IMG/VR virus record: IMGVR_UViG_3300024518_001512
Coordinates: 1-29,799 of that record
Reading direction: 5' to 3' (one strand)
DNA length: 29,799 bases
DNA from: a virus
Lineage: Duplodnaviria; Caudoviricetes
Shown: positions 1 to 27,980 of the stretch, one piece after another
Layout: the number at the start of each line of letters is the position of its first letter
How positions within the stretch are numbered: position 1 is the first letter of the stretch
Translations under genes and position numbers: made by a program
The notes under the pieces: model-generated
What the model saw: the letters and a program-made list of their open reading frames with translations, nothing else
The model's database searches: none
Told to the model about the DNA's origin: nothing

Positions 1-3000
1 GCTCAAGAACGGTCATTCCCGGCTCAATATCGGCACGCTGGGCCAGGTCATCGGCTACAGCCTGCGGAGTGGGGAAGAAGTCAAAGCCTTCGAACTTCTT
101 ACCGACCAACTCGCGTTCTGCGGCCTTGATCGGATCCTCTTGCTTCTTCTCGCCCATGACGGTGGCCATTTCACGAACGGCCGCACGGAGTTCAGCGACG
201 TTCTTGATGTCGGCACGCTCCAGACGACGACGAATTTCTTGGCGCCCCTTCAGCCACCAAGCCTCTGTCGGGATCTTGGCAATGATCTTGTCAGCCATCT
301 CTGGTCGTAAAACAAAATCACCCGACTTCTTTCGGCGCGAGTCGAGTTGACGAGCCAGCAACTTACCGCCTTTGACGTCCTCAAGTGCCCTGATAAAATT
401 CATTGCTTGGTCAGCGCTGACATCGTACTCAGGGTATTCTACATTGTCGGCGTATTCGTCCTTCCATGGGCCGTCTTTGATCTTGTCGTACTCACGACCG
501 ATGTATCGCGATTCAGCCTTGCTTGCTGCTTGGCGCTGGGCCTCACGCATACTGCTCTGGATCGCTTCAATCTGGGTCTTCTGCTTCACGCCGGCCAGTT
601 GAACGGCTTCACCGCTGTCGATGGCGTTGGCGATGTTGGTCATGGTCTCGGCAAGCTCAAGCTCAGTCCGTGCGTTGGCTTCTGCGTAACCGGCCTCTCT
701 GGCGCGCTTCGCTGTGTTTGTCTGGCGATCCTGGTCAAGAGATGCTTGGGCCTTGGCCTGAAGCTTGTCGGCAGTCTCACGGAGCTTCGTTGTCTTGGAC
801 GGGGCCTTGCCAGGTTCAACCGCTTCTGCCGCCGGGGCCTCTTCGCCCTTGGCGTTTGCCGCGAAGGCTTCAGCGTCTTCTCTGTTCTCGAACTGGAACC
901 CAGGCTTTGCCCGGCCGCGAGAGAATCGGCTGTAGTAGCCGTTGTGTTTCTTCGACAACGTGCGGAGCTTGGTGAACGTTTCCCGGTCAACGCGGTCGGT
1001 CATCTGGACAACGTGTAGGGGGATGTCCTTCTTTTCGTTGTATGCTTCGACGATCGTAAAGCCAACGTCTTCAGCTACTTCGTCTTTGCGGAGTGCAACC
1101 GGGGCCTTCCTGGCCGCTTCGCGCTTCCGGCGATCCTCTGCCTTGAGGGCGTCGAACGTCGCCTTCTGCTCGGTGGTAAGCTTTCCAGCTACGCCAAGGC
1201 GCTCAAGCTCTTCGAAGTCGCGGAGGGTCTTGGGATCCTTCAGCCCTTCCAAGCGCTTATCGCGCTCTGCTTGCCGCTGCTTGACCTCTTCGGCGTACTT
1301 GTCTATGTCCTCTTGGGTCGTCTTGTCTACGGCTCTCTGCGTGGCTTCCTCCATCGTCTCAGAGAACGGACTCCATTGGAAGGTGCCGCTGGCAACGAAC
1401 TGTTGAGAGATACCGTTCATCGCAGAGTTGAGGATGTCGGCCTTCTTGTCGCTCATCGATAATCCAAACCCGGCGAGGCGAATCAACTGCTTCTTGGGCT
1501 TCGGAGAGAGGATGGCCTTGATCTTCTCGCGGTTCTCAAGGTAGGACTTGTACGACTCCTGAAGTTGCTCTGGGGTGATATTTCCGGTCTTCAGCCGTTC
1601 GGAGAACGTGTCAATTGCCGCAAGGCTGTCGATGACGGCGGCGCCCTTGGGTGCTTCTGCGGCTTCTGGCTTCTCAACTGTTAAGGATTCCTTTACAGTT
1701 GGTTTCTTGACCACCTTCTGATCGGTGATGAAGACGGATTCAAGGCCCTTCTGCGTGACTATGGTGCGGTATCTGAATTTCCCTTCCTGGTCAACGCGTA
1801 TTCCCTTGTAATCCTTGCCAGTGTTCTTCCATTTCTCCTTGGTGATCTCGACATCACCCTCGGCTTTCTCGTTGATGATAGGGAAGGTGACTTCCTTCCG
1901 GCGCTGGGCCTTCTCAGCTTCAGCACGTTTTACCTTGGCCGATTCCTTCTTCTCGGCCGCTGCGGTAGCTTCGGCGCGTTTTACTTCGGCGATACCAGTG
2001 GCCAAAAGGAGTTCAGATTTCGCGGCGCTCATCCACTTGCTGAACTTGTCCTCTGCCTTGTCAACGGCACTGGACCTTCCAGCAGCCTGCTTACTGTTGA
2101 AGCCACTTCGGCCGGCAACAAGCGTTGATACGGCGCCACTGCGCGTGGAAAGAACAGACTCACGACGTTTCAGATACTCACCCTTGATGCGTTCCAGTTC
2201 GCTTGCCAAGTCGGCCATACGCCCTTCAGGGATATCCTTCAGCGCGTCATCACGAAGACCTTCCATGAAGTTAACGTACTGCTCCTGCTCAACTGTTGCG
2301 GCATTGCCTGGGCTTCTGCTTGTCCCTGAGTATGCGGAAATTGCACGCTCGCGGTCGATGTCGTCACGGCTGAATTCAGGGATTGCCTGCGCTTCTCGTA
2401 CACGACGGAACCCTGCCTGCTGTTCCTTGCGCTCTGCGGCCTTCTTCTTGAGTGCTTCAGCTTTCGGGGCGGCTTCTTTTGGCTTGTCGAATTCTTTGAC
2501 ATGCGCTATCGCTTCATCAATAATCGTAAGGTCAAATCCGTACTTGACGGCGTTCTCTCGATCATCAGACAAGTCGAGCAACTTCAATTCTCGATTCTTA
2601 GGATCTGTCAACCACTCTGCGTCTTCCCACGACTCGAAATAATCTTCCAGTGATTCGACCTTTTCGGATTCGGCTTCGGCTTCCTCTTCAAATGGCGTTG
2701 CTTCAGCCTGCGGAATGCCGGGGAATGGCGGGGGCTGCTGCTTCTCTGCCTGCGGTTCCGGCGCTGGGAAGTCGAATTCATCCGTTTGCGGGGCTGCTGG
2801 GGCTGCTACCAGGTCGCGTAGCTTGCCGTCCTTGGCGATCGCATGACCACCGTTGACCATGATACTGTCAGTCTGGTCGATCTCGAACTCAATACCGTCC
2901 TTCAGCTTGACCATGCCTTCGTCTTTCTCGACCACTTCAAGCCATTCGCCTACAGTGTCGCCCTCGACGAATACCTCGTCACCTTTCTCCAGGTCGATAC

Positions 3001-5944
3001 CGAAGACCTCTTCCGGCTTAGCGTTCTCCATCGCCTTGGCGGCTTCGGCGCTCTCTGGGGTAGCTTCTGCTTCGACTGCTGCGTCACGCCATGATTCGTG
3101 AGCCTCTACGAGCGCGGTAAGGGCAGCGTAAACGTTGCCGTCACCTTCAGCCATGATCGGGGCTACGATTGCCGAGCCTGCGTCCTTCTGCTCCATGATC
3201 GTCTGAATTACGACGTCGGGGGCTGCTCCATCGACGATTCGATACTTCGCCAATGCTGTGGCATACTTCGCCTCATCGGTAAGGCGCAAGGCTTTCCCTT
3301 GGTAGAAGTACTCTGGAGCAACGCCGGCCTGAATGATCTCCATGGATTCGAAGTACGGGGAGTTGTGATTTGCCCGGCGCTGGACGCCTGCCTTGGCTGG
3401 CTCTTTCCGCTTCTTCTTCTTCGGAACTTCAACTTCCGGTACTGCTGCGGCTTCCGGCTTGGCTTCTTCCTTCCCGGTGATTTCTTTCTTGATCTGCTTG
3501 AGGAGGGTGGAACCGCGGCTTGTCAGTGGTCGGTACTTATTCCCGCTAATATGCTCAAGGTCGCCAGAACGAACGGACTCCTTGAAGATGTCAGCAAAGT
3601 CGGCGATCTTCGGCCGGGCGGCGCGCTGCGGCCCTTTCTTCTCAGCCTGCTCCTGCTGTTCGACACGAGCTTCTTCCTGCTTCTGCTGGATAGCTGCGTC
3701 AATGTTCAGCGTCGGTACCGTGATCGGCGAGTCAGGGGCTACAGGCACATCTTGGATGACCGGGGCAACCTCGGGCACGGGAACGGCCGGAGGAAGTTCT
3801 TCAACCGGTGTGCCAGCTTCGCGCGTGGTCTCTGGGATGGATCCGGCATGTTCCGGCCCTGGCATCGTCGAACCGTCTGGCATCGTGTGAACCAGGTTGG
3901 AACCGGCGGCGCGGGCAAGCTCGATTTCTTCTTGACGTCCACCAATTTCGAAGGTTGCTTGGCGGGCCTGCTCCGCTCTCTGGGCTTCGCGCTGCTGAGG
4001 AAGTCCTTGGAACGGCGCGCGAAGATCCTGCTGCATTCTCTGGAAGTCTCTGCGGAGGTTATCGCCAGGTTGGTCCTGTGCCAGCTCTGCGGCTGCTACT
4101 GGATCGTTGTTAGTGGCGCGCATGAGTTCGGCCCATGCCTGCGGCCCTACTTGCTCTTGAATGGCCTGTACGTCGATTACAGGGGCTTCAGCGGCCTGTT
4201 CCGGCGCCTGCTCTTCGCGCGCTGCAAGCTGGGCCTCAAGGATTGCTGGACTCGGACGTTCGGCGAATGGTTCTTGCTGGGCATCTGCCGGGAGGTCAAT
4301 GTTGAATTCACCAGCGGCCGGCGCTTCTGGTAGCGGGGTCTGCAAGAATTCCTCTACCGTCATCTCGCCGCTGTCAAGCTGTTCAAAAGCTTCCTGGGCG
4401 GCTTCGGGGTCGGTTTGGGCGAGCTGCTTGAACTTGTCATAGACTTGATCTTCTGCTTCGTTGGCCTGCTTGCCCTTAGCAGTTTCCGCCCTTTCTGCTT
4501 CACCACGCTTCTGGAATCGGCTCAAAGCGGCTCCACCAGCTACGCGGCCAACGCCGGGGAGGGTGAATGCGACGAGTTCGGCAAGAGCTTGCTCACCGCC
4601 GGGGAATCCAGCCTTGTAGCGTTCCCATGCGTCTTTCGGGTGAAGGCCGTGCTTCCCGGTACCGAAGTCTTGAATGTCGAGAGCGGCGCGAAGCATTTCG
4701 CCAACACGTTCCTCTCCCATCTCGGCAAGGATACCATTAAACCCACCACGGCGGAGGGCTTCATTCAATGCCTTGTTCCCTTTCATGAACTTCCGCATCT
4801 TGCGAGTAGCCAATCTTAGGTACGCTGCTGCTTTCGGGGAAAATTTCCTGAGTATCTTTCTGCCTGCAGGGGAAAAGCCTTCGCCGAGTTGTTCAGAGAA
4901 CAGTTCTACAAACAAATCGCCCTGAGCGCGAACGAAGTCGATTGCCGGGTTGGTCGACGCATCAGAGAGCTCAAGCTTGCCGTCCTTGATCGAGACAGTG
5001 CCAACGCGACGGGAGAGGTGGTCAGTAAGTGCGCGTTGCTGCATGGCCGGCATCGCCTTGAACGATCGGACTGCAGACTTCTTCAGGAACCTACCGCCTG
5101 CCTTGAGTACCGATTTCTCGAACGCCTTCTTTGCGGCCGGGGCAGTGCCACCGCTAACCGCGATCTCAGTCATGAATGCCGGAAGCTCTGAAAGTGTGCT
5201 GTGGACAATGCCGCCGAAACTCCTACCACGGCGCTGATCTTCCTTGACGCGCTTGGCGAAGTCGGTCAAAAGCTGTTCGTCGAGTTTTCTATCGAGGGGA
5301 TCGCCGTAATCATTGGACTTGTACCGATCTGCTGCTGACTTGATCTCGAACATTTCCATCAACGGGAATGGAGTGAACGGGATCTTCGTTCGGATGTCAG
5401 ACTTTGCCATCGATTCGGCGAACCCGACCTTCTCAGTAGGATCAAAGCCAAGGCCCTTGCGAATGCTCTTGTCCAGCGCGCGGCCACCTTTGCCCTCGGT
5501 CCCGAGTAAGGCTCCTTCAAGTCCGGTACGGGCCTCACGCTCTTCGGCCGGGTCGAACTCGTAGAAGGTTGGGCCACCGCGGCGGATCGTGCCAAACGCT
5601 CGCTCCGTTGCCTTTGACTGGCCTTTGATGAACTTGCCAATTGCGCTTTCTTCTTTGCGCGCTGGGGCTGGGCGGGCGCCTTCGAGAATAGCCAAGGCGG
5701 CATCGAGATCTTTGTCTCTGCCAGGACGTGACAGCGGCTTCGGTGCCGGGGCAACCGGGGCTTGCTCTGCTTGGGCTGCAGGCTGAACAGGGGCAACTGG
5801 CCTTGATAGCGCACTTGGACGCTTGCCGCCGACAGGAGGAAGACCTTGGAGAACGTTAAGAGCATCATCGAGTTCAGCATCTCTTGTAGGCTTCACTGGA
5901 TCGCGGAAACGTCGTCTAAACTTATCAAGCGGTTGCTCTGGCAT
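1..5944 (-). CDS. Giant DarB-like / large polyvalent internal virion (ejection) protein, >1980 aa, 3'-truncated, with an adenine methyltransferase domain starting at the window edge
   Basis: ATG at 5944 with AAGGAGG RBS right after the upstream stop. Hand translation (MPEQPLDKFRRRF...) found no stop down to base 2, and the ORF track lists no closed ORF from this start. It ends ...ERELVGKKFEGFDFFPTPQAVADDLAQRADIEPGMTVLE, the FFPTP...VLEP(SAG) start of an N6-adenine MTase. Upstream modules (NGYYSRF..PGFQF, RQTNTAKRAR) are of the kind seen in phage polyvalent proteins. Confidence 0.9.
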   Translation of the reverse strand, partial: MPEQPLDKFRRRFRDPVKPTRDAELDDALNVLQGLPPVGGKRPSALSRPVAPVQPAAQAEQAPVAPAPKPLSRPGRDKDLDAALAILEGARPAPARKEESAIGKFIKGQSKATERAFGTIRRGGPTFYEFDPAEEREARTGLEGALLGTEGKGGRALDKSIRKGLGFDPTEKVGFAESMAKSDIRTKIPFTPFPLMEMFEIKSAADRYKSNDYGDPLDRKLDEQLLTDFAKRVKEDQRRGRSFGGIVHSTLSELPAFMTEIAVSGGTAPAAKKAFEKSVLKAGGRFLKKSAVRSFKAMPAMQQRALTDHLSRRVGTVSIKDGKLELSDASTNPAIDFVRAQGDLFVELFSEQLGEGFSPAGRKILRKFSPKAAAYLRLATRKMRKFMKGNKALNEALRRGGFNGILAEMGEERVGEMLRAALDIQDFGTGKHGLHPKDAWERYKAGFPGGEQALAELVAFTLPGVGRVAGGAALSRFQKRGEAERAETAKGKQANEAEDQVYDKFKQLAQTDPEAAQEAFEQLDSGEMTVEEFLQTPLPEAPAAGEFNIDLPADAQQEPFAERPSPAILEAQLAAREEQAPEQAAEAPVIDVQAIQEQVGPQAWAELMRATNNDPVAAAELAQDQPGDNLRRDFQRMQQDLRAPFQGLPQQREAQRAEQARQATFEIGGRQEEIELARAAGSNLVHTMPDGSTMPGPEHAGSIPETTREAGTPVEELPPAVPVPEVAPVIQDVPVAPDSPITVPTLNIDAAIQQKQEEARVEQQEQAEKKGPQRAARPKIADFADIFKESVRSGDLEHISGNKYRPLTSRGSTLLKQIKKEITGKEEAKPEAAAVPEVEVPKKKKRKEPAKAGVQRRANHNSPYFESMEIIQAGVAPEYFYQGKALRLTDEAKYATALAKYRIVDGAAPDVVIQTIMEQKDAGSAIVAPIMAEGDGNVYAALTALVEAHESWRDAAVEAEATPESAEAAKAMENAKPEEVFGIDLEKGDEVFVEGDTVGEWLEVVEKDEGMVKLKDGIEFEIDQTDSIMVNGGHAIAKDGKLRDLVAAPAAPQTDEFDFPAPEPQAEKQQPPPFPGIPQAEATPFEEEAEAESEKVESLEDYFESWEDAEWLTDPKNRELKLLDLSDDRENAVKYGFDLTIIDEAIAHVKEFDKPKEAAPKAEALKKKAAERKEQQAGFRRVREAQAIPEFSRDDIDRERAISAYSGTSRSPGNAATVEQEQYVNFMEGLRDDALKDIPEGRMADLASELERIKGEYLKRRESVLSTRSGAVSTLVAGRSGFNSKQAAGRSSAVDKAEDKFSKWMSAAKSELLLATGIAEVKRAEATAAAEKKESAKVKRAEAEKAQRRKEVTFPIINEKAEGDVEITKEKWKNTGKDYKGIRVDQEGKFRYRTIVTQKGLESVFITDQKVVKKPTVKESLTVEKPEAAEAPKGAAVIDSLAAIDTFSERLKTGNITPEQLQESYKSYLENREKIKAILSPKPKKQLIRLAGFGLSMSDKKADILNSAMNGISQQFVASGTFQWSPFSETMEEATQRAVDKTTQEDIDKYAEEVKQRQAERDKRLEGLKDPKTLRDFEELERLGVAGKLTTEQKATFDALKAEDRRKREAARKAPVALRKDEVAEDVGFTIVEAYNEKKDIPLHVVQMTDRVDRETFTKLRTLSKKHNGYYSRFSRGRAKPGFQFENREDAEAFAANAKGEEAPAAEAVEPGKAPSKTTKLRETADKLQAKAQASLDQDRQTNTAKRAREAGYAEANARTELELAETMTNIANAIDSGEAVQLAGVKQKTQIEAIQSSMREAQRQAASKAESRYIGREYDKIKDGPWKDEYADNVEYPEYDVSADQAMNFIRALEDVKGGKLLARQLDSRRKKSGDFVLRPEMADKIIAKIPTEAWWLKGRQEIRRRLERADIKNVAELRAAVREMATVMGEKKQEDPIKAAERELVGKKFEGFDFFPTPQAVADDLAQRADIEPGMTVLE

Positions 5945-7633: not shown

Positions 7634-8776
7634 TCAAGTTACGAAGGTGAACCCGCCTGATACGTCCCATTTGACGATCACGAAACCGTCGTAGGGAGCA
7701 GTGCCAGCCGTGAGATACCATGCGTTGGTACTTTCTGCCGCTGGCTCTGGCTGGGTAGACGTATCGCTATAATAACCAAGTGTGAAACCTGAATGGCTTT
7801 CGTCATTACTTACAGGTGAGGTGTAGATCTTGTGGTAGGTTCCGAAGGTAGCTCCACCGAAGTCAGGGTTTGAATTACCTGAATATTTACGATACCAATC
7901 GACCTTATGGCTGAAGTCAGTAGGGAAGCCCTTCGCCTCAGCATCGAACCAATCCATGTATATTTGAAAATAGCGCCCACTCTTCCATACGGTATTCTGC
8001 AATGTGGCAGTATACCAATCAGAGCGGGATGGAACTCTTCGCGTCCACGGAAGCGCGTTGAATGCAGCTTCAGCGTCAGCCCATGTCTTGCCATCACCAT
8101 CAAAAAAGAGTGCCTTATTGGCTTTCGATGCAGTGCCTTCAACCGGTCCGAAATAGTAACGCCTGGCATAAGACGAGGTATTTGCTGGAACTTCAAGGTG
8201 TTTCGTGTACCTCAGTGCATCGAGAAACAGGTACTTGTTCCTCGCCCACTTTACCGGGTTAAAATCAGGGTCGAGAGGTCCGTAAAAGGTTGAGCCGCCT
8301 AGCTGTGAACGCGCATCAATCCACGTCACTCCTACTACGGCTTGCAGTTGCGAAATAGTGCGAAATTCAGGGATAGTGTAGGTGTTACTTACGCCCTCCC
8401 AATTGCCGCCATTGTCGGTATAGTCGGCCCAGGCCATGTTGCCGTATGCAGCAAGCATGAATTCTATTGATTTGTCGATATGAAAAGCAATGCCAATCTG
8501 GTCTGGAAATGACAAAGGTGATCCTATCTGCCAAGCCAGTAGTTGATGGCCGGGGAAAGGGGTTGTTACGATATTTTCGCCGTCTGTACTGTCGAGAATA
8601 TTGTCATCATCATCATAGATAGCCCCACGCTCCACCACCGCCTGCCGGATCGCCTCCAGGAATACCCATGCAGGGGCGCTCTGCTTCATCGTCGTCTCAG
8701 AGGTCCAGTTAGGCGAATAGCTGATCGAGGTGGAGGTATCAGTGCAGGATGTCCAGCTCGTAAAAACGAGAGCCAT
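7634..8776 (-). CDS. Hypothetical virion protein, aromatic-rich, possible receptor-binding or tail-tip protein
   Basis: 380-aa ORF whose start overlaps the upstream stop (TAATG). W/Y/F-rich and visibly more AT-rich than its neighbours. No family recognised. Confidence 0.55.
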   Translation of the reverse strand: MALVFTSWTSCTDTSTSISYSPNWTSETTMKQSAPAWVFLEAIRQAVVERGAIYDDDDNILDSTDGENIVTTPFPGHQLLAWQIGSPLSFPDQIGIAFHIDKSIEFMLAAYGNMAWADYTDNGGNWEGVSNTYTIPEFRTISQLQAVVGVTWIDARSQLGGSTFYGPLDPDFNPVKWARNKYLFLDALRYTKHLEVPANTSSYARRYYFGPVEGTASKANKALFFDGDGKTWADAEAAFNALPWTRRVPSRSDWYTATLQNTVWKSGRYFQIYMDWFDAEAKGFPTDFSHKVDWYRKYSGNSNPDFGGATFGTYHKIYTSPVSNDESHSGFTLGYYSDTSTQPEPAAESTNAWYLTAGTAPYDGFVIVKWDVSGGFTFVT

Positions 8777-12915: not shown

Positions 12916-15900
12916 TTAGAGTTCTTTGACCATTGCCCACGAAAGGCCGAAACCGGTGATTTGGGTGATATTGCCAACGCCAGAAATACGGAACTCGATA
13001 TCAATGTCCGTTGCTGGAGTGACGACCCCCTTACCCATGATATTGTCGGGGATATTCGACGCTGACGAAGTAGCGTTGATACGATTTATGCTACATATAT
13101 CAGTCGATAAATATGCCGCATTAGTCACGTCGTATACTTGGATATCAAGAGCACCAGACGCGGAACTGAACAATGGCGACACCGCGAATTCAATCTCATA
13201 CTTAACGTCTCCTAAGAGCGTCACGCGGTATGTTCCCGAGGCAAATCCGATTGTGCCGTCGCGCTGGTCGAACTGAACGGGATCACCCGATGTTAAATCA
13301 GTTGTCTGGCTTCCGCTCATTGTCAGATACGCGTGTGCCTTCGTACCTCCACCGCCACCAGCAGCCCACTTCATCCCTGTAGCTTGAGTGCTGTCAGCGG
13401 TCAAGACGTAATCATTTGTCCCAATCGGCAAACGCGCGTCAACAGTGGAATAGGTGAACAAGTCGCCCTTAGTCGTCAGCGGCGATCCGCCAGCGTTGTC
13501 GTCAACGTACTTCTTATTGGCAACCTGGTAATCCGTCGTAGGAGCGGCTGACGGAGTTGTCGGGAACACGGTGAACGTTGCACCAGCGAACTGAGGAGTT
13601 GCCGCAATCGTAACCGCCTGATCCAGATAACTGTGATCCGCACCGGTACTGCTTACGTGAGTAAACGCCGCATCCCAGTTGGTCAGCTTGGCCGTAGGCA
13701 TTAGGCCATTTTGACTATTGGTCGCGTCTCTGGTGGCCGCGGTGTGCTGGGCGCTCGTGAGGTGGAAGTACTCAGCCGTAGTGCCGCCCTGCAGGCTCGT
13801 CAAGTCATTGTGAACGCCGCTGAAGATTGAATCATCGACATACTTCTTGTTCGCTACCTGATAGTCGGTAGTCGGAGCCTGGCTTGGCGTAACCGGGAAT
13901 GCGGTGAAGGTTCCGCCGGCAAACTGCGGCGCTGCAGTAGTCCTGACGTCCTGGTCGATATACGTGTGATCGGTCCCGTCAGAGCTGACATGGGTTGAAG
14001 CCGCATCCCAATTCGTGAGCTTGCCTGTCGGCATCAAACCGTTCACGCTATTCGTTGCGTCACGAGTCGCAGCGGTATGTTCCGCCGAAGTCATGTGGTA
14101 ATATTCAGCGGCCGTGCCGCCTTGGAGTCCAGTCAGATCGTTGTGAACACTAGTCCCACCACCGCCTGTTGACGTACCGCCAGCAATCAGCCACTTCGAA
14201 ATGCCAGAGTCGTAGGTCAGCGCAATCCACTTGTCGAGGCTGTCCATGACAACATCAGAACCACCAAGTTCCATGTTGCCCGTGCCGTGCTTCAGTGTGA
14301 CAACCCTGGCAGCACTAACCGGCCGGACGTAGATCACGCCGGAATATCCGGTAGCGATAATCGAATTCAAATCGTCAGCAGCGTCATCATTTTCGGTGTC
14401 GATCAAGTGAAGGGCTTGCGTGGAAGTAACATTGCCTCCGCTGATGGTCAACTCGGACGGTGCCGTGAATTCGATACCAGGAGAAGCAAGCGAACCGTCG
14501 ATAACCACGTCAGAAGTCAGTGTAAGCGACGTAGAGGCCGAAATGATACTATCTGCGGCCCCAGTCATGGTAGAGGCATTAATTGACCATGAGGACTCCG
14601 AGAGTACTCCGGCCGAAGCGCCGACAACGGGGATCTGATATTGATTAGTCAGCCCGACAAGGCCAACGTGCTGCGCGGAGGTGAGGTGGTAGTACTCGTT
14701 TGTATCTCCACCTTGCAGCCCGGTAAGGCTGTTGTGGTCGGAGTTTACCAGGGAATCGGCATACGCCTTCGTTGCTACGTCTTGGGCTAAGGTCGGGTCA
14801 GTGACGTTCGAAATCTGCCCGCCGGTCGGCGCGGCCATGTTCGTCCCGTTAATCAACCATGCAGTTGATCCGAGAGCGCCAAGGCCGTCGTCTGCAATGA
14901 TACCGTAGCTTGTCCCAGATGCGCTGATCGCCTCTACCGGGTGAGAGTTCGCAGCATCGCGGTCTGAAAGGGAATTGTGAGAGCTCGCAGTGAATCCGCT
15001 ACCACCGGGGATGGCATCATTGCGCCAATCGACGTAATCACCATCAAGGGAAGGTCGGACGCGAGCATCAACGGCATTGCCATAACTTCCAGTTTGGAAG
15101 ATGACTGATGCAATGGGCCGGACTTCGGCAAACGGAAGTTTGACAGCAAGATTCCCCATCTCAACCGTTGCGCCTTCTTTGGCTGCTGTTGCCGTAGCGT
15201 AGACATCTTGGCCGACTGCGGCGTAAACCTTGTCACCAACGCCGCCGGACCCTAACGCGAAGACATGGCAAAGAACGTAGTCATTGACCGGAACAGTAGT
15301 CAACTGCCATACTGTGCCTGTCCACTCATTATAAACGAGTCGGCCGGTTACTCCGACGCCAGCGGTAGTGTCAGTCACGACGGAGAATCCGGTCTGTTCG
15401 ATCTCGCGAACGTACTCCATCGCTCCATCAAGGTAGAGGATAGGAAGCCCGGCAGTGCTCGTTACTGCGGAGATAGCGAAGCGAAGGTCTTCATCGGTAA
15501 TAACGCCACTGTCAACGCTAAACTGAGCGTCTGCTGCTACGCTACCGTCACCGGCAACGACGAGAGAACCGATGGCCAGTCCGGCGCCCAAAACCTGAGA
15601 ACCGAGCGTATTGTGGAAATGGAAGTGAGTCGCGCCATCCATCTGTAGCCCGTGAGTCTCCGTCAATGGGCCGCTGAGGATCGTTCTGCTATTATCCGCA
15701 TCCCAGTAGAGATAGGCGATAAACACCCAAGGGCCGAGGACTACGCGGTCATCAAAGCTCGTTGAATGGACCATAGTTCCAGTTTCGTCGAACCAGAAGA
15801 AGTGGTCGCCTTCAACGTCGGTCCATGCGATAGTATGATCGCCAGGAGCCTGAATGAGGAGGTTATTCACCGAATAGACAGGGAATCCATTAGTGCTGGT

Positions 15901-17103
15901 GATAGTCAGCTCAAGAGCAACGTCGTCTATACTGAGAGATACTGGAGATTCAGCGAGATCAACCGCAACGCCGTCTTTCAGGACGAATCCAGTGCGTTCG
16001 AGTGCGCTATCGCCTGATTGGGTGTGGCCGACCCATGAAAGATCCTGAACTTTCACGTCGATGATACCGGTTGTAGCGTGGGCCGTAACGACCTTGCCTA
16101 TGCGGATCTGGCTGGAAGGTAGGAGAGGCTTGACGTTGGTTAGCTCTCCGAGAGTTTCTGAAAGCCATAGATCGTCGCCTACTGCCCATACTTCACCTTC
16201 GCTCGTGCCAGTAGTGTCGATGTCCCTTGAACGGCCGCGACTGGTAATAATGCCGTCAGACCCAGAAGCGAACGTATGCGTTGCGATACCGATAGCACCG
16301 CGACGGTTAACGTTGGCGCCAGTTGCATTGGCTTGGGCTAGGAAGCATTCTTGGAGAGTTGCAGTGACCTCACCGTTAAGGGCGACAGGTTGACCGTTGT
16401 TGACGTCGGCGCCAGTGAGGTTGTAGACGCGATTCCAGTCCTCATAACCTACTGAGTTGGCTGATGCCTTGTCAGACTGAACGAGGAGCGTGCTGAAATC
16501 ATTATCCCACTGGACCTGCCCCTCAACCGCTGCCGGGGGAGTTGCAAGGACATTCCAAATCAAATAATCAACGTCGGGGAGATGGCTACCACCACCGGCA
16601 TTATCGTCAACGTATTTCTTGTTAGCAACGTCGTAGTCGTTGACAGGGGAAGAGCTTGGAGTCAATGGGAACGCTGTAAACGTTGCCCCGGCGAATTGCG
16701 GGGTAGATGCAATGGTTACATCCTGGTCAATGAACGTATGATCTGCGCCGCTCATACTGACGTGCGAAAATGCAGCGTCCCAATTAGACATCTTACCGGC
16801 CGGCATCAGCCCGTTGATGGCGTTCGTCGCATCGCGCGTCGCTGACGTATGCTCAGCAGTAGTCATGTGATAGTACTGGCCTGAACTACCACCCTGAATC
16901 CCGGTCAAGTCGTTATGGACGGTGATTGACGTGTTGCCGAGCAACCAGTCAAGCGCGTCCTTTACCGTCGATCCAGATACCGAACTATCGTTCACTACTT
17001 GGGAAGCGGCCAACTGCGGGTCATTATTGCCAGTGATCGGATTAGGATCATCCAGCTCAACTTCTACATTCGCATTCGAAAGCTCAACGCGATACGTCGC
17101 CAT
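12916..17103 (-). CDS. Long tail fibre protein with internal repeats and a C-terminal C1q/TNF-like head
   Basis: 1395 aa, T/G/S/A/D-rich, with AAGGAG RBS. Repeated fibre motifs (VANKKYVDD, HNDLTGLQGG..YYH), TTKGDL...ARLPIGTNDYVLTADS..GMKWA before a poly-Gly hinge, and a ~135-aa beta-sandwich tip. Confidence 0.85.
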   Translation of the reverse strand: MATYRVELSNANVEVELDDPNPITGNNDPQLAASQVVNDSSVSGSTVKDALDWLLGNTSITVHNDLTGIQGGSSGQYYHMTTAEHTSATRDATNAINGLMPAGKMSNWDAAFSHVSMSGADHTFIDQDVTIASTPQFAGATFTAFPLTPSSSPVNDYDVANKKYVDDNAGGGSHLPDVDYLIWNVLATPPAAVEGQVQWDNDFSTLLVQSDKASANSVGYEDWNRVYNLTGADVNNGQPVALNGEVTATLQECFLAQANATGANVNRRGAIGIATHTFASGSDGIITSRGRSRDIDTTGTSEGEVWAVGDDLWLSETLGELTNVKPLLPSSQIRIGKVVTAHATTGIIDVKVQDLSWVGHTQSGDSALERTGFVLKDGVAVDLAESPVSLSIDDVALELTITSTNGFPVYSVNNLLIQAPGDHTIAWTDVEGDHFFWFDETGTMVHSTSFDDRVVLGPWVFIAYLYWDADNSRTILSGPLTETHGLQMDGATHFHFHNTLGSQVLGAGLAIGSLVVAGDGSVAADAQFSVDSGVITDEDLRFAISAVTSTAGLPILYLDGAMEYVREIEQTGFSVVTDTTAGVGVTGRLVYNEWTGTVWQLTTVPVNDYVLCHVFALGSGGVGDKVYAAVGQDVYATATAAKEGATVEMGNLAVKLPFAEVRPIASVIFQTGSYGNAVDARVRPSLDGDYVDWRNDAIPGGSGFTASSHNSLSDRDAANSHPVEAISASGTSYGIIADDGLGALGSTAWLINGTNMAAPTGGQISNVTDPTLAQDVATKAYADSLVNSDHNSLTGLQGGDTNEYYHLTSAQHVGLVGLTNQYQIPVVGASAGVLSESSWSINASTMTGAADSIISASTSLTLTSDVVIDGSLASPGIEFTAPSELTISGGNVTSTQALHLIDTENDDAADDLNSIIATGYSGVIYVRPVSAARVVTLKHGTGNMELGGSDVVMDSLDKWIALTYDSGISKWLIAGGTSTGGGGTSVHNDLTGLQGGTAAEYYHMTSAEHTAATRDATNSVNGLMPTGKLTNWDAASTHVSSDGTDHTYIDQDVRTTAAPQFAGGTFTAFPVTPSQAPTTDYQVANKKYVDDSIFSGVHNDLTSLQGGTTAEYFHLTSAQHTAATRDATNSQNGLMPTAKLTNWDAAFTHVSSTGADHSYLDQAVTIAATPQFAGATFTVFPTTPSAAPTTDYQVANKKYVDDNAGGSPLTTKGDLFTYSTVDARLPIGTNDYVLTADSTQATGMKWAAGGGGGTKAHAYLTMSGSQTTDLTSGDPVQFDQRDGTIGFASGTYRVTLLGDVKYEIEFAVSPLFSSASGALDIQVYDVTNAAYLSTDICSINRINATSSASNIPDNIMGKGVVTPATDIDIEFRISGVGNITQITGFGLSWAMVKEL
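13480..14145 (-). repeat. Two tandem ~333-nt (111-aa) repeat units in the tail fibre; a third copy at ~16585-16917 and a partial copy at ~14665-14785
   Basis: HNDLT.LQGG..EY.H.TSA.HTAATRDATNS.NGLMPT.KLTNWDAA..HVSS.G.DH...DQ.V...A.PQFAG.TFT.FP.TPS.APTTDYQVANKKYVDD recurs. The first His codons at 14145 and 13812 are exactly 333 nt apart. Confidence 0.9.
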
Positions 17104-21390: not shown

Positions 21391-21425
21391 AAACCGGCAC
21401 CTACCCCGTAAAAGGTAGGCACCGG
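21391..21425 (-). terminator. Probable weak intrinsic terminator after the capsid genes
   Basis: Minus strand CCGGUGCCUACC-uuuuacgg-GGUAGGUGCCGG-UUU: a 12-bp stem whose two G-U pairs form only on the minus strand, with a short U tail. Confidence 0.65.
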
Positions 21426-22125: not shown

Positions 22126-23160
22126 CTATTCACTGGTGGGCGGGATGGCGCTTGCAGCGACTTCCAACCGACCGATGAAGGTTTGGGTGAGGATCAAGCA
22201 AGCCTGATCTGCGGTCCAGCTTGCGCTGCCAAGACGACCCATAGGATCACCGGGGGCGGGCTTCGGCTGGAGAACAACGGGTTTGGTTGCACCATGACCC
22301 TGGAGGGGGACGATGGCGTAGGCATCACGCGCCAGGGCAATCAACGGGTAAACGTCGGCCTGGGCTGCACTGGAGACTTCTTCGCCACCACTGAGCCAGT
22401 TAGTGCTCGAAGCACCGGAGGTTTCCCAGGCATCGAAGAGCGAGGACAGCATGACGCGGAAGTCACCAATCGAACCAACTTCGTTCGGCATGGCCTTCAT
22501 TGCGGAGCTGTAATTCGCAACAGGAACCCAACCAGGCAGATTTTCGAGGTCGGCCTTCGCGTCGGTGTGACCCAACAGGATGAACGCTTCACGAATCGGC
22601 TCAGTGGAGACCATGGCCGATGCGGCGATGATGCGAGTGATCTTCTTGGCGCGGTTCTTCATGAAGGCACGTTCCATGCGCTTCAGGTCGGACAGCTTGG
22701 CCGGGGAGTCAACTGCTGCGCGGGACGCAACGTTGTTGGCGTAGAAGACATTGGTACCACCCTTCAGGGCGTTCCAGCGAATGAGCTCGACGACTTCAGC
22801 CTGCTGCTCACCGAGGATGTTGAAGGTCTCCTGGAAGACCGGATCCTCGTGGTACAGTTTGAGTTCGCGAGTCAGCTCAACGAGATCACCATACGTTTCC
22901 AGGGTAACGGAAACATCGGTGTACTTGAGCTTTTTGGCGGCGGGCGTAACGCCTTCGGCCAGGGGTGCGAGTGCCGGCAGAGCTGCGAGCGAATGGTAGC
23001 GACGATAGACGCGAACCTTGCCCTTGTTCTGCGGTTGAGGGTCTTTCTGCCCGAATCGTTCCAGGATCATAACTTCCTGGGCACGCTTCAACAGACGCTT
23101 TGCGGCAAAGACCGCGGTACGTTGACTGAGATCGCCAGTCGTGTTGTAGTTGGTAGCCAT
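22126..23160 (-). CDS. Major capsid protein, N4-gp56 family (344 aa)
   Basis: GDLSQRTAVFAAKRLLKRAQEVMILERFGQ...RRY...LAEGVTP...YGDLVELT...NEVGSIGDFRV...DVYPLIAL...DPMGRLG. Start set at ATG 23160 behind AAGGAGG. Confidence 0.93.
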   Translation of the reverse strand: MATNYNTTGDLSQRTAVFAAKRLLKRAQEVMILERFGQKDPQPQNKGKVRVYRRYHSLAALPALAPLAEGVTPAAKKLKYTDVSVTLETYGDLVELTRELKLYHEDPVFQETFNILGEQQAEVVELIRWNALKGGTNVFYANNVASRAAVDSPAKLSDLKRMERAFMKNRAKKITRIIAASAMVSTEPIREAFILLGHTDAKADLENLPGWVPVANYSSAMKAMPNEVGSIGDFRVMLSSLFDAWETSGASSTNWLSGGEEVSSAAQADVYPLIALARDAYAIVPLQGHGATKPVVLQPKPAPGDPMGRLGSASWTADQACLILTQTFIGRLEVAASAIPPTSE

Positions 23161-23211
23161 AACGGCCTCCTTGTGTTGTTCGGCACCGTGCTCGGACACT
23201 CAGAGGCGTTC
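23161..23211 (-). promoter_or_regulatory. Putative Com-binding RNA hairpin (23194-23211) overlapping an SD-sequestering helix in the MCP leader
   Basis: Minus strand GAACGCCUCUGAGUGUCC versus the Mu Com target as I recall it (GAAUGCCUGCGAGCAUCC): 13/18 identical with stem pairing preserved. Alternative pairing AACG-CCUCU-ga-GUGU / ACAC-aa-GGAGG-c-CGUU covers the SD. Confidence 0.75.
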
Positions 23212-23244
23212 TGGCTAACAGTCTTGCTATTGCGTTTGTGAGAT

Positions 23245-23439
23245 CTATGTAACTTGGAAACGAATGAACTTTTTGCAGTGACGGCACATTACTTCAGTGT
23301 TGGTACCGGAACCGAGGATTCCCTTGAAAAGAATCGTGTTACAACCTGGGTAAGGACAACGAGTGACGACTTCATTGGGCTGTGTGACATGTTCGTCGTA
23401 TGTCGCATGGACCGTATTCGTTCGTTGGTCGTCAGCCAT
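23245..23439 (-). CDS. com: Mu Com-like zinc-ribbon protein (putative RNA-binding translational regulator)
   Basis: 64 aa, RCPYPGCNTILFKG...TEVMCRHCKK fits the Com pattern RC..CNKLL.K.......IKCPRCK. Its start overlaps the scaffold stop (TAATG). Confidence 0.75.
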   Translation of the reverse strand: MADDQRTNTVHATYDEHVTQPNEVVTRCPYPGCNTILFKGILGSGTNTEVMCRHCKKFIRFQVT

Positions 23440-24425
23440 TAGTCTTTCACCTTGAATTCGTTGAATAGGGCCAGTTCCTCAGATTCGCTGAGAGGTGGCT
23501 CACCGTCTCCGCCTTTGCCCTTGGTCCGGCTCTTACCGCCGCCGTCCTTGCCCTTCTTCTTCGTGCGAGCGGTGGACCCGTGGAGGTCCGTGTGCTTCTT
23601 CTTCTTGTCCCTGGCGTCAGAGTCGCGATTCTTGTTCGAGCTCTTGACCGTGGCTTCCTTGAACATGTCGAGAACTGCGGATTGCCCCTCGATCGTGTTT
23701 CCGTCGAACAGGGCTTGGGCGTCCTTGTCCTGCTTGTTGAGCCAGCCCCAGAACTTATGTTTCCCGTCGGCCTGCATGGCAGAAATGTTGAGGTCTGAAT
23801 GGCGGGACTGGAGTGCGCTGTTGTGCTTCTCTGCGGCCAGGTCGGCCCGCATTGCATCGAAGTCCTTGCGGCTTACATAATCTTCACCCTTAGCGGTGGT
23901 GGTCGTGCCGGCGGCTTGAAGGGCCAGGGCAGTCATGAAGTCAACCAGCTCTTCACCGTACTCTTCGCGGAGTTCAGTGACGTTGATTTTCCTGTCGCCA
24001 ATGGTGAGCTCTTCGGCACCCATCAATTCCTTGGTGACTTCTTCGCGAATCTCTGCCTCGCGCTCGGCCATCCGGCGGGTAACTTCGGATTCAGTATCGG
24101 ACTCTTCAGTCTCTTTCTTGTTGTCGGCCACCATGCGCTTTACGCGATCAGCTGCAGACTCGTCGGAATGGTCATCGTCGTCTTCGTCCTCTTCGGACTC
24201 TTCGTCTTCATCGTCATCCGACTCTTCTTCGTCGGAATCATCAGAATCGTTGTCGTCGTCGCTGGTTTCTTCGTCGTCGTTCTCTTCTTCGCCAGATTCG
24301 TCGTCCGTACCTTCATCGGTATCGGCGTCGTCTTCGGAATTCTCTTCGTCTTCGTTGAAGAGATTCTCCATCTGGTCGTCGGTCATGTCTTCAGCTTCTT
24401 GCTCTGCGCTCAAGTCGTCTGGCAT
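23439..24425 (-). CDS. Capsid scaffolding protein
   Basis: 328 aa between portal and MCP. Extremely acidic N-terminus, helical core (FWGWLNKQ), and a Lys-rich C-terminus ending in an acidic helix. Confidence 0.8.
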   Translation of the reverse strand: MPDDLSAEQEAEDMTDDQMENLFNEDEENSEDDADTDEGTDDESGEEENDDEETSDDDNDSDDSDEEESDDDEDEESEEDEDDDDHSDESAADRVKRMVADNKKETEESDTESEVTRRMAEREAEIREEVTKELMGAEELTIGDRKINVTELREEYGEELVDFMTALALQAAGTTTTAKGEDYVSRKDFDAMRADLAAEKHNSALQSRHSDLNISAMQADGKHKFWGWLNKQDKDAQALFDGNTIEGQSAVLDMFKEATVKSSNKNRDSDARDKKKKHTDLHGSTARTKKKGKDGGGKSRTKGKGGDGEPPLSESEELALFNEFKVKD

Positions 24426-25242: not shown

Positions 25243-25271
25243 ATTGTATGCAGGTGATCAACGGATGTCAA
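25243..25271 (-). promoter_or_regulatory. Sigma70-type promoter TTGACA-N17-TACAAT for the head genes
   Basis: Perfect -35 (25266-25271), 17-nt spacer and 5/6 -10 (25243-25248), lying in an intergenic gap. Confidence 0.8.
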
Positions 25272-27951: not shown

Positions 27952-27980
27952 ATTGTACACAGGGCCGCAGGAGATGTCAA
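27952..27980 (-). promoter_or_regulatory. Sigma70-type promoter TTGACA-N17-TACAAT upstream of the portal gene
   Basis: -35 at 27975-27980, 17-nt spacer, -10 at 27952-27957, intergenic. Confidence 0.8.

Follow-up and report, generated by a model that had tools for sequence, protein, structure and literature searches.

A Com-family zinc-ribbon gene and a putative translational switch in the leader of a phage major capsid gene

We describe a 64-aa protein of the Com family that is encoded directly upstream of the major capsid protein (MCP) gene of a phage and that likely binds a hairpin in the capsid leader, holding the ribosome site open and acting as a translational ON switch. The segment analyzed, which we refer to as the window, is a 29.8-kb virus-record fragment (49% complete) whose minus strand encodes, in order, terminase, methyltransferase, portal, an acidic scaffold-like protein, the 64-aa ORF, MCP, and more virion genes; all window features given below lie on this strand unless marked with a plus sign. 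We read the phage as podovirus-like from its gene content, because it has a phrog_332 portal and an internal virion protein and there is no sheath or tape-measure match among the 29 window proteins, and it is in this sense that the designation 'podovirus' of a preliminary description of the window is retained. No Mu-like features are seen among the phage genes scanned. At 2–5,944 the window encodes a virion-associated-type protein of giant size (>1981 aa) that matches a methyltransferase family (phrog_15406), and the complete 61-kb relative G005 carries a different 2974-aa protein at this place.

The com-like gene and its transcription unit

The com-like gene (23,245–23,439) starts within a TAATG sequence that overlaps the stop codon of the upstream gene, which encodes the acidic 328-aa protein (23,439–24,425). 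Family searches (Pfam, PHROG) give no match to the latter protein, and its position and composition suggest that it is a likely scaffold. To the 3' side of com is the 84-nt capsid leader (23,161–23,244), followed by the MCP gene (22,126–23,160; 344 aa), which begins with an ATG at 23,160. The capsid protein matches PF25209 and phrog_1357 (E 1.8e-53), and its best cultured match is an annotated N4-gp56 family MCP (36%). Both the location of a four-Cys Com-like gene immediately before MCP and the 84-nt leader with its motif at 23,211–23,194 had been reported in the preliminary description, and both are borne out. The Shine-Dalgarno (SD) sequence of the capsid gene is GGAGG (23,166–23,170), and its GGAG is invariant in 15/15 aligned leaders. 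An in-frame GTG at 23,199 was rejected as the MCP start; it lacks an SD and is out of frame in the related leaders L003, L004 and L008.

The scaffold-com-MCP unit is headed by a sigma70-like promoter, TTGACA-17-TACAAT (25,243–25,271; 11/12), and a twin with the same hexamers and spacing (27,952–27,980) precedes the portal gene; both are consensus matches only, and both hexamer pairs recur at matching places in G005. An intrinsic-terminator-like hairpin of 14 bp (21,394–21,425) lies behind MCP and the gene that follows it and closes the unit, such that the near-consensus promoter at 25,271 and the terminator-like hairpin at 21,425 bracket scaffold, com and MCP. Neither an RNA polymerase nor an integrase was found among the 47 of 67 G005 ORFs scanned.

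The 64-aa protein is a CCCC zinc ribbon (motif RC-x4-C..ILFKG...EV.C-x2-C; CPYPGC...CRHC) that is extended at the N-terminus and lacks a C-terminal tail of the Mu type. It shares 39% over 28 residues with Mu Com (E 9e-5), C28, C33, C52 and C55 aligning with C6, C9, C26 and C29 of Mu Com, and it carries the zinc-ribbon Cys spacing and the LLFK-x-IEIKC signature; the consensus of the family of its relatives is RCPxCxxLLFKGxLxxGxxIEIKCxxCK. Searched directly, the window protein matches neither PF10122 (at E≤10) nor a PHROG Com family, and PF10122 is matched by six of its 17 close homologs at E≤1 (best 0.0015). With these 17 as seed, a search of 1.84 billion representatives yields 295 proteins or clusters at E≤0.001, and 147 new relatives from the best 150 of the 295 were aligned with the query. 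Among the 148 aligned sequences from these best 150, the Pfam family most often matched is PF10122 (71/148 at E≤0.01), and hhalign matches the profile of the same 148 to Mu Com with 97.5% probability (E 6.8e-12). An HMM built from six classical Com sequences ranks the 64-aa ORF first of 502 six-frame window segments (E 4.8e-6), and all 17 homologs score above every reversed control with it; one homolog is labelled 'phage FluMu protein Com' by its source. The earlier assignment to Com is upheld by the relatives and by hhalign, with the qualification that the window protein has no direct PF10122 match.

In three homolog pairs the ratios of synonymous to non-synonymous codon differences are 26:11, 21:9 and 25:4, and because synonymous differences predominate in all three, the com ORF is, by this measure, under purifying selection. 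Judged by its sequence, the 64-aa ORF is a genuine gene, a diverged zinc-ribbon member of the Com family. There are no PDB sequence relatives at E<0.1, and in an Atlas search the top clusters are unnamed, with a PF10122 cluster first appearing at rank 25 (score 0.90), which is a lead only. A Pfam IBR match (E 3e-4, below the cut-off) was rejected as a likeness in Cys spacing. A tblastn search with P0017 against the phage collection gave five weak matches, none informative on a capsid link (Bacillus phage Slash was inspected). Some relatives of 104–125 aa, P0018 and P0028–P0030 among them, have two profile matches each, i.e. doubled Com fingers.

A Com-type hairpin in the capsid leader

The capsid leader contains a predicted Com-type target hairpin, GAACGCCUCUGAGUGUCC (23,194–23,211), with a stem formed by 23,209–23,206 and 23,199–23,196 and the loop CUCUGA (23,205–23,200), followed by an A·C mismatch and a G-C pair as in Mu. 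The published Mu Com target is GAAUGCCUGCGAGCAUCCC (PMC6483171), which is also present in the Mu genome (NC_000929) and had been given correctly in the preliminary description, together with the 13/18 identity of the two elements and the U-A to C-G and G-C to G-U changes in the stem. The Com protein of H. sputorum binds CC(N)2-3GAG within the loop of a hairpin (Nowacka et al., PMC6483171), a rule that the window element fits as CC-UCU-GAG, and SELEX on Com yielded the bipartite motif GAG(N)2CC(N)2-3GAG(N)2CC (PMC6483171). Another 13/18 match to the Mu site is present in the window at +17,997, and 12 sites reach 12/18; raw identity is not unique, and was rejected as sufficient evidence, and the significance of the leader element therefore rests on its position, structure and conservation.

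Related loci were fetched by capsid similarity, and their selection is therefore blind to the leader. A CCCC finger is encoded upstream of the capsid gene in all 16 of them, in one case with a homing endonuclease between. Inclusion of three finger-fetched metagenome loci and removal of duplicates and of the near-duplicate L007 gives 16 distinct leaders, and 15 of these contain a C(N2-5)GA hairpin (≥3 bp) with its loop 42–53 nt before the start, compared with 0.62 expected from dinucleotide shuffles; the search window and the loop range were set after data inspection and the loci are related. In L170 the finger is present, the hairpin is absent and the start is open. In locus L156, which is not among the 16 leaders, visual inspection shows a stem of 2 bp at most, and including this locus would give the hairpin in 15/17.

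The three inner stem pairs hold in all of 16 hairpins compared, with two or three pair types at each: pair 1 is C-G in 14 and U-A in two, pair 2 is G-U in eight, G-C in seven and A-U in one, and pair 3 is C-G in nine, G-C in five and A-U in two. The occurrence of G-U, G-C and A-U at pair 2 points to RNA of the minus strand as the signal. The A·C mismatch of Mu follows the stem in 15/16 hairpins, and a (U)AGCC just 5' of the hairpin is also conserved among the leaders. In an ungapped alignment of eight related rows whose loops and stems are of equal length, pairing occurs in 100% of cells, which is reached by 0/500 shuffles, and slid controls give ≤62.5%; pair-count measures on the same rows are weaker, being matched by 37 and 79 of 500 shuffles.

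In the complete G005 genome the relaxed motif has a single match, at the capsid leader, and a control pattern has none. The leader of the methyltransferase gene in the window has no such hairpin, and 4/4 distant capsid relatives from the phage collection (30–36% identity) have neither finger nor hairpin. Rfam gives no match in the window leader, in seven related loci (at gathering) or in phage G001 (below), and one chance snoRNA row only in 19 further loci. A second small hairpin in the window, AAUAG[CAAGA]CUGUU with a C-N2-GA loop (23,231–23,217), lies upstream of the main target; it is not called in L002 and is perhaps due to chance. In L171 a GIY-YIG-type homing endonuclease gene is located between com and two tandem target hairpins (945–2,000 of that locus), and its capsid frame has no ATG after the SD, the start apparently being ACG or ATT.

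Predicted occlusion of the ribosome site and a proposed mechanism

An OFF stem-loop (23,154–23,217) is predicted in which ACAC, the SD, CGUU and the region of the start codon are paired to the target strands and the upstream UAGCCA. The minimum free energy (MFE) structure includes the three helices named in the preliminary description, AACG (23,210–23,207) with CGUU (23,164–23,161), CCUCU (23,206–23,202) with GGAGG (23,170–23,166), and GUGU (23,199–23,196) with ACAC (23,176–23,173), but the fold does not end before the AUG as had been stated; UAGCCA (23,217–23,212) pairs with UGGCUA (23,159–23,154), covering the UG of the start codon. The stability of the OFF fold has a z of -2.8, which 0/200 shuffles reach. 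With a predicted opening cost of 19.2 kcal/mol the capsid start is the most occluded of the 28 starts in the window (the next is 15.8), and it is also the most occluded of 13 starts in G005; such strong occlusion is odd for a gene needing high expression. The 16 com-bearing leaders have a median opening cost of 17.0 kcal/mol (range 4.8–27.5), and the four distant capsid relatives without finger and hairpin have open starts (7.0–8.7 kcal/mol).

Forcing the hairpin lowers the predicted opening cost of the capsid ribosome site from 18.3 to 9.1 kcal/mol, in agreement with the two mutually exclusive folds described earlier, and this is reached by 0/60 shuffles that preserved the hairpin, SD and protein. 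The coupling is negative in 11/11 leaders and is reached by ≤2/60 shuffles in seven of them, and competition between the folds thus extends beyond chance to these seven but not to the other four, for which the values are within the shuffle range (L003, 15; L004, 9; L148, 22; and L155, 30 of 60). Holding the hairpin lowers the opening cost in 15/15 leaders, although by only 0.2 kcal/mol in L167. A sliding 14-nt block gives the greatest relief of the ribosome site when it lies over 23,217–23,192, spanning the target.

In 11/15 leaders the predicted partner strand of the target belongs to the ribosome site, and in 3/15 to codons 5–10; in L167 there is none, the hairpin being present and not sequestered. 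The CCUCU/GGAGG anti-SD helix is limited to L001 and L002 (the closest clade), and in L146, L154, L155, L169 and L171 it is the 3' stem strand that pairs with the SD, closer to the arrangement in Mu. The conservation anticipated in the preliminary description is therefore found for the hairpin and its covariation, and the exact anti-SD helix is confined to the two closest leaders. RNAalifold gives no consensus structure for a 15-leader MAFFT alignment, in which the stem is visibly misaligned and the OFF partners differ, and the OFF fold is therefore not one conserved helix; in these models the logic of occlusion is conserved across the leaders and the exact helix is not. Because the same folding test does not reproduce the known switch of Mu (SD opening 1.7 versus 1.6), it serves as a rough guide with limited weight in both directions. 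In L003, L004 and L148, where the target pairs with MCP codons 5–10, a loop base (A or G) tracks a synonymous Asn codon (AAT or AAC), a possible compensatory change.

We propose that without the protein the target strands would pair with the SD and start codon, at an opening cost of 18–19 kcal/mol, and that with the hairpin held the cost would drop to about 9 kcal/mol, the level of an ordinary start. Once the RNA is complete, the OFF fold is favored over the hairpin by 10–13 kcal/mol, a penalty that makes simple equilibrium capture of the hairpin too costly in the window, but the hairpin costs only 0.7–2.1 kcal/mol while the 3' end of the RNA lies between 23,194 and 23,170. Since the OFF fold prevails when complete and the hairpin costs 1–2 kcal/mol before the SD is transcribed, Com probably captures the nascent hairpin co-transcriptionally, within an interval of ~25 nt. 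Early transcripts, made before any Com is present, would fold shut in the leader; scaffold and Com, from one host-sigma70-type transcript, would accumulate first, so that capsid protein would follow scaffold, and synthesis of this costliest protein would be delayed until Com has built up. The earlier proposal that a Com/target module has been redeployed to gate capsid synthesis is supported with regard to family, target and occlusion: gene order, kinship, hairpin covariation and complementarity are seen directly in the genomes, the opening costs are folding predictions, and binding and activation are what we infer.

The leader could instead open without Com, through ribosome standby, temperature or co-transcriptional initiation, with Com being dispensable or fine-tuning. 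This would accommodate L167 and L170, in which the finger is kept without a buried target, and there is a parallel in P. syringae, where a stop codon in com upstream of lscB, the one knock-out, left expression and levan output unchanged (PMC3899960), although other com copies could act there in trans. We nonetheless regard it as unlikely, since the loop C and GA are retained while the stem covaries in 15/16 leaders, finger, hairpin and occlusion are jointly absent in 4/4 distant relatives, and com appears to be under purifying selection. It is quite unlikely that Com binding acts on the capsid mRNA through processing, stability or Rho-type termination rather than on initiation. The same motif does overlap intrinsic-terminator-like hairpins in other phages, such that a transcription-level use exists as a predicted form, but in the window no U-tract follows the hairpin and no minus-strand terminator is called in the leader, and in 11/15 leaders the partner strand is the SD/start region.

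Alternatively, Com could bind the hairpin and repress or cap capsid translation, as negative feedback or control of stoichiometry, for example by stabilizing the upstream UAGCC helix that covers the start codon. We consider repression distinctly improbable, given that Com activates in Mu (PMC6483171), that holding the hairpin cuts the opening cost in every one of 15 leaders (if barely in L167), and that binding to terminator-type leaders would antagonize the terminator. In several leaders, though, the conserved (U)AGCC can pair over the SD end or the start codon even when the hairpin is formed, and L145 and L154 remain at 18–19 kcal/mol in that state. Small phage C4 fingers can be transcription activators, the late activator Ogr of P2 being DNA-binding, and the motif could on this analogy be a DNA site for the finger, but the profile match is to Com, the stem letters vary freely while pairing including G-U is retained, and there is no promoter-like site in the leader, which makes this reading very improbable.

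Com-type motifs in other phages and known Com systems

A scan for the window's motif returned 121 loci from 26 of 64 parts, of which five are finger-capsid loci; in six others the motif forms the 5' arm of a hairpin of 16–17 bp that is followed by a U-rich tract, and the remaining loci look like chance matches. Phage G001 (L133) has three such terminator-type leaders (8,634–8,720, 14,727–14,822 and 16,660–16,751), each preceded by GAGCGCC-N2-3-GAGCGCC, the bipartite SELEX motif, and a PF10122 gene over the cut-off is located 7 kb upstream of them. Tandem Com-type motifs with a terminator-like hairpin and U-tract also precede head, tail and lysis genes in L173, L197, L210, L215, L220 and L228, with com adjacent or, counting L133 in the set, 7 kb upstream. 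We regard these leaders, as read from their sequences, as candidates for Com antitermination, and binding there would, as in the capsid leader, turn expression on.

Scanning for the tandem form returned 56 loci, 26 of them terminator-type by script (15 non-redundant). A same-strand Com-HMM match whose end lies -1 to 440 nt upstream is present in 6/15 terminator-type loci and in 1/27 others (Fisher p 0.005, with a self-chosen threshold and a statistic that ignores kinship). Fifteen ORFs scanned downstream of terminator-type leaders (L022 included) encode three head proteases, four portals, one tape measure, one endolysin and six unknown or weakly matched products. L189 and L221 are Mu-style com-methyltransferase operons in which com contains the tandem motif and ParB/methyltransferase genes lie downstream, and they link the classical operon to the form found at virion genes. 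Whole-record PF10122 searches found no com in eight terminator-type fragments (7–65% complete) nor in G009, in which com was found with the classical-Com HMM. The tandem-motif scan of bacterial genomes gave 120 loci from 5 of 64 parts, one terminator-type and none with com; these matches were rejected as real Com sites and are read as chance in GC-rich DNA.

Taking these together, we somewhat favor the view that Com is a widespread and overlooked phage late-gene switch in which one hairpin is read in two ways, by a translational activator where it is buried by the ribosome site, as in this capsid leader, or by an antiterminator where it supplies the 5' arm of a terminator before portal, protease, tail or lysis genes, with one phage having three leaders and a distant com; Mu com-mom would then be a special case of RNA-based timing of virion assembly. 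Com has so far been a single-gene curiosity of phage Mu. If our reading is correct, phages that apparently rely on plain host-type promoters use a 64-aa RNA-binding protein to schedule their most abundant virion protein behind its scaffold. The same reading would give many small unannotated phage zinc fingers (the 295 clusters at E≤0.001) a function that can be tested and a target that can be predicted, and would offer synthetic biology a compact switch, inducible by protein, for translation or antitermination.

Among the papers listed by a literature search, with subscription journals largely outside its scope, none connects Com with capsid genes or with terminators, and the available portions of PMC7549136, bioRxiv 10.64898/2026.07.27.740549 and PMC5737381 hold nothing further on such a link; the PMC5737381 catalogue of 224 RNA motifs, or similar ones, could include the motif without its connection to Com. 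Com homologs in the Mu-like prophages FluMu, Pnm1 and B3 precede methyltransferases (PMC3299994), and these resemble the window in the reuse of Com before a non-mom gene, although they remain DNA-modification genes at the mom position. In Pseudomonas, com is found before LlpA bacteriocins, tailocin cargo and lysis genes, and levansucrase (PMC6240691, PMC4684702, PMC3899960), and the general role of Com 'remains to be explored' according to a Pseudomonas review; these genes are likewise outside the mom context, but no RNA target or capsid link is described in the portions of these sources available.

The closest comparison is with phage Mu, in which Com activates mom translation (PF10122 Zn_ribbon_Com; Hattman 1991, Wulczyn & Kahmann 1991, cited in PMC6483171). 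The two systems share the CCCC zinc ribbon, a hairpin with a C-(N)2-3-GA loop, the A·C mismatch and G-C pair below the stem, an activator gene directly upstream on one transcript, and a structured initiation region. They differ in that the gene regulated here is that of the major capsid protein rather than a DNA modifier, and the target is in the 84-nt intergenic leader and is buried by the ribosome site, whereas that of Mu is inside com and beside a separate inhibition hairpin. The protein is also longer at its N-terminus by ~25 residues, has x4 spacing in its first knuckle and lacks the C-terminal tail, and the phage is without Mu-like features in the genes scanned. The comparison supports a locus that is not a com-mom operon but that encodes a Com-family protein with a com-mom-like mode of working.
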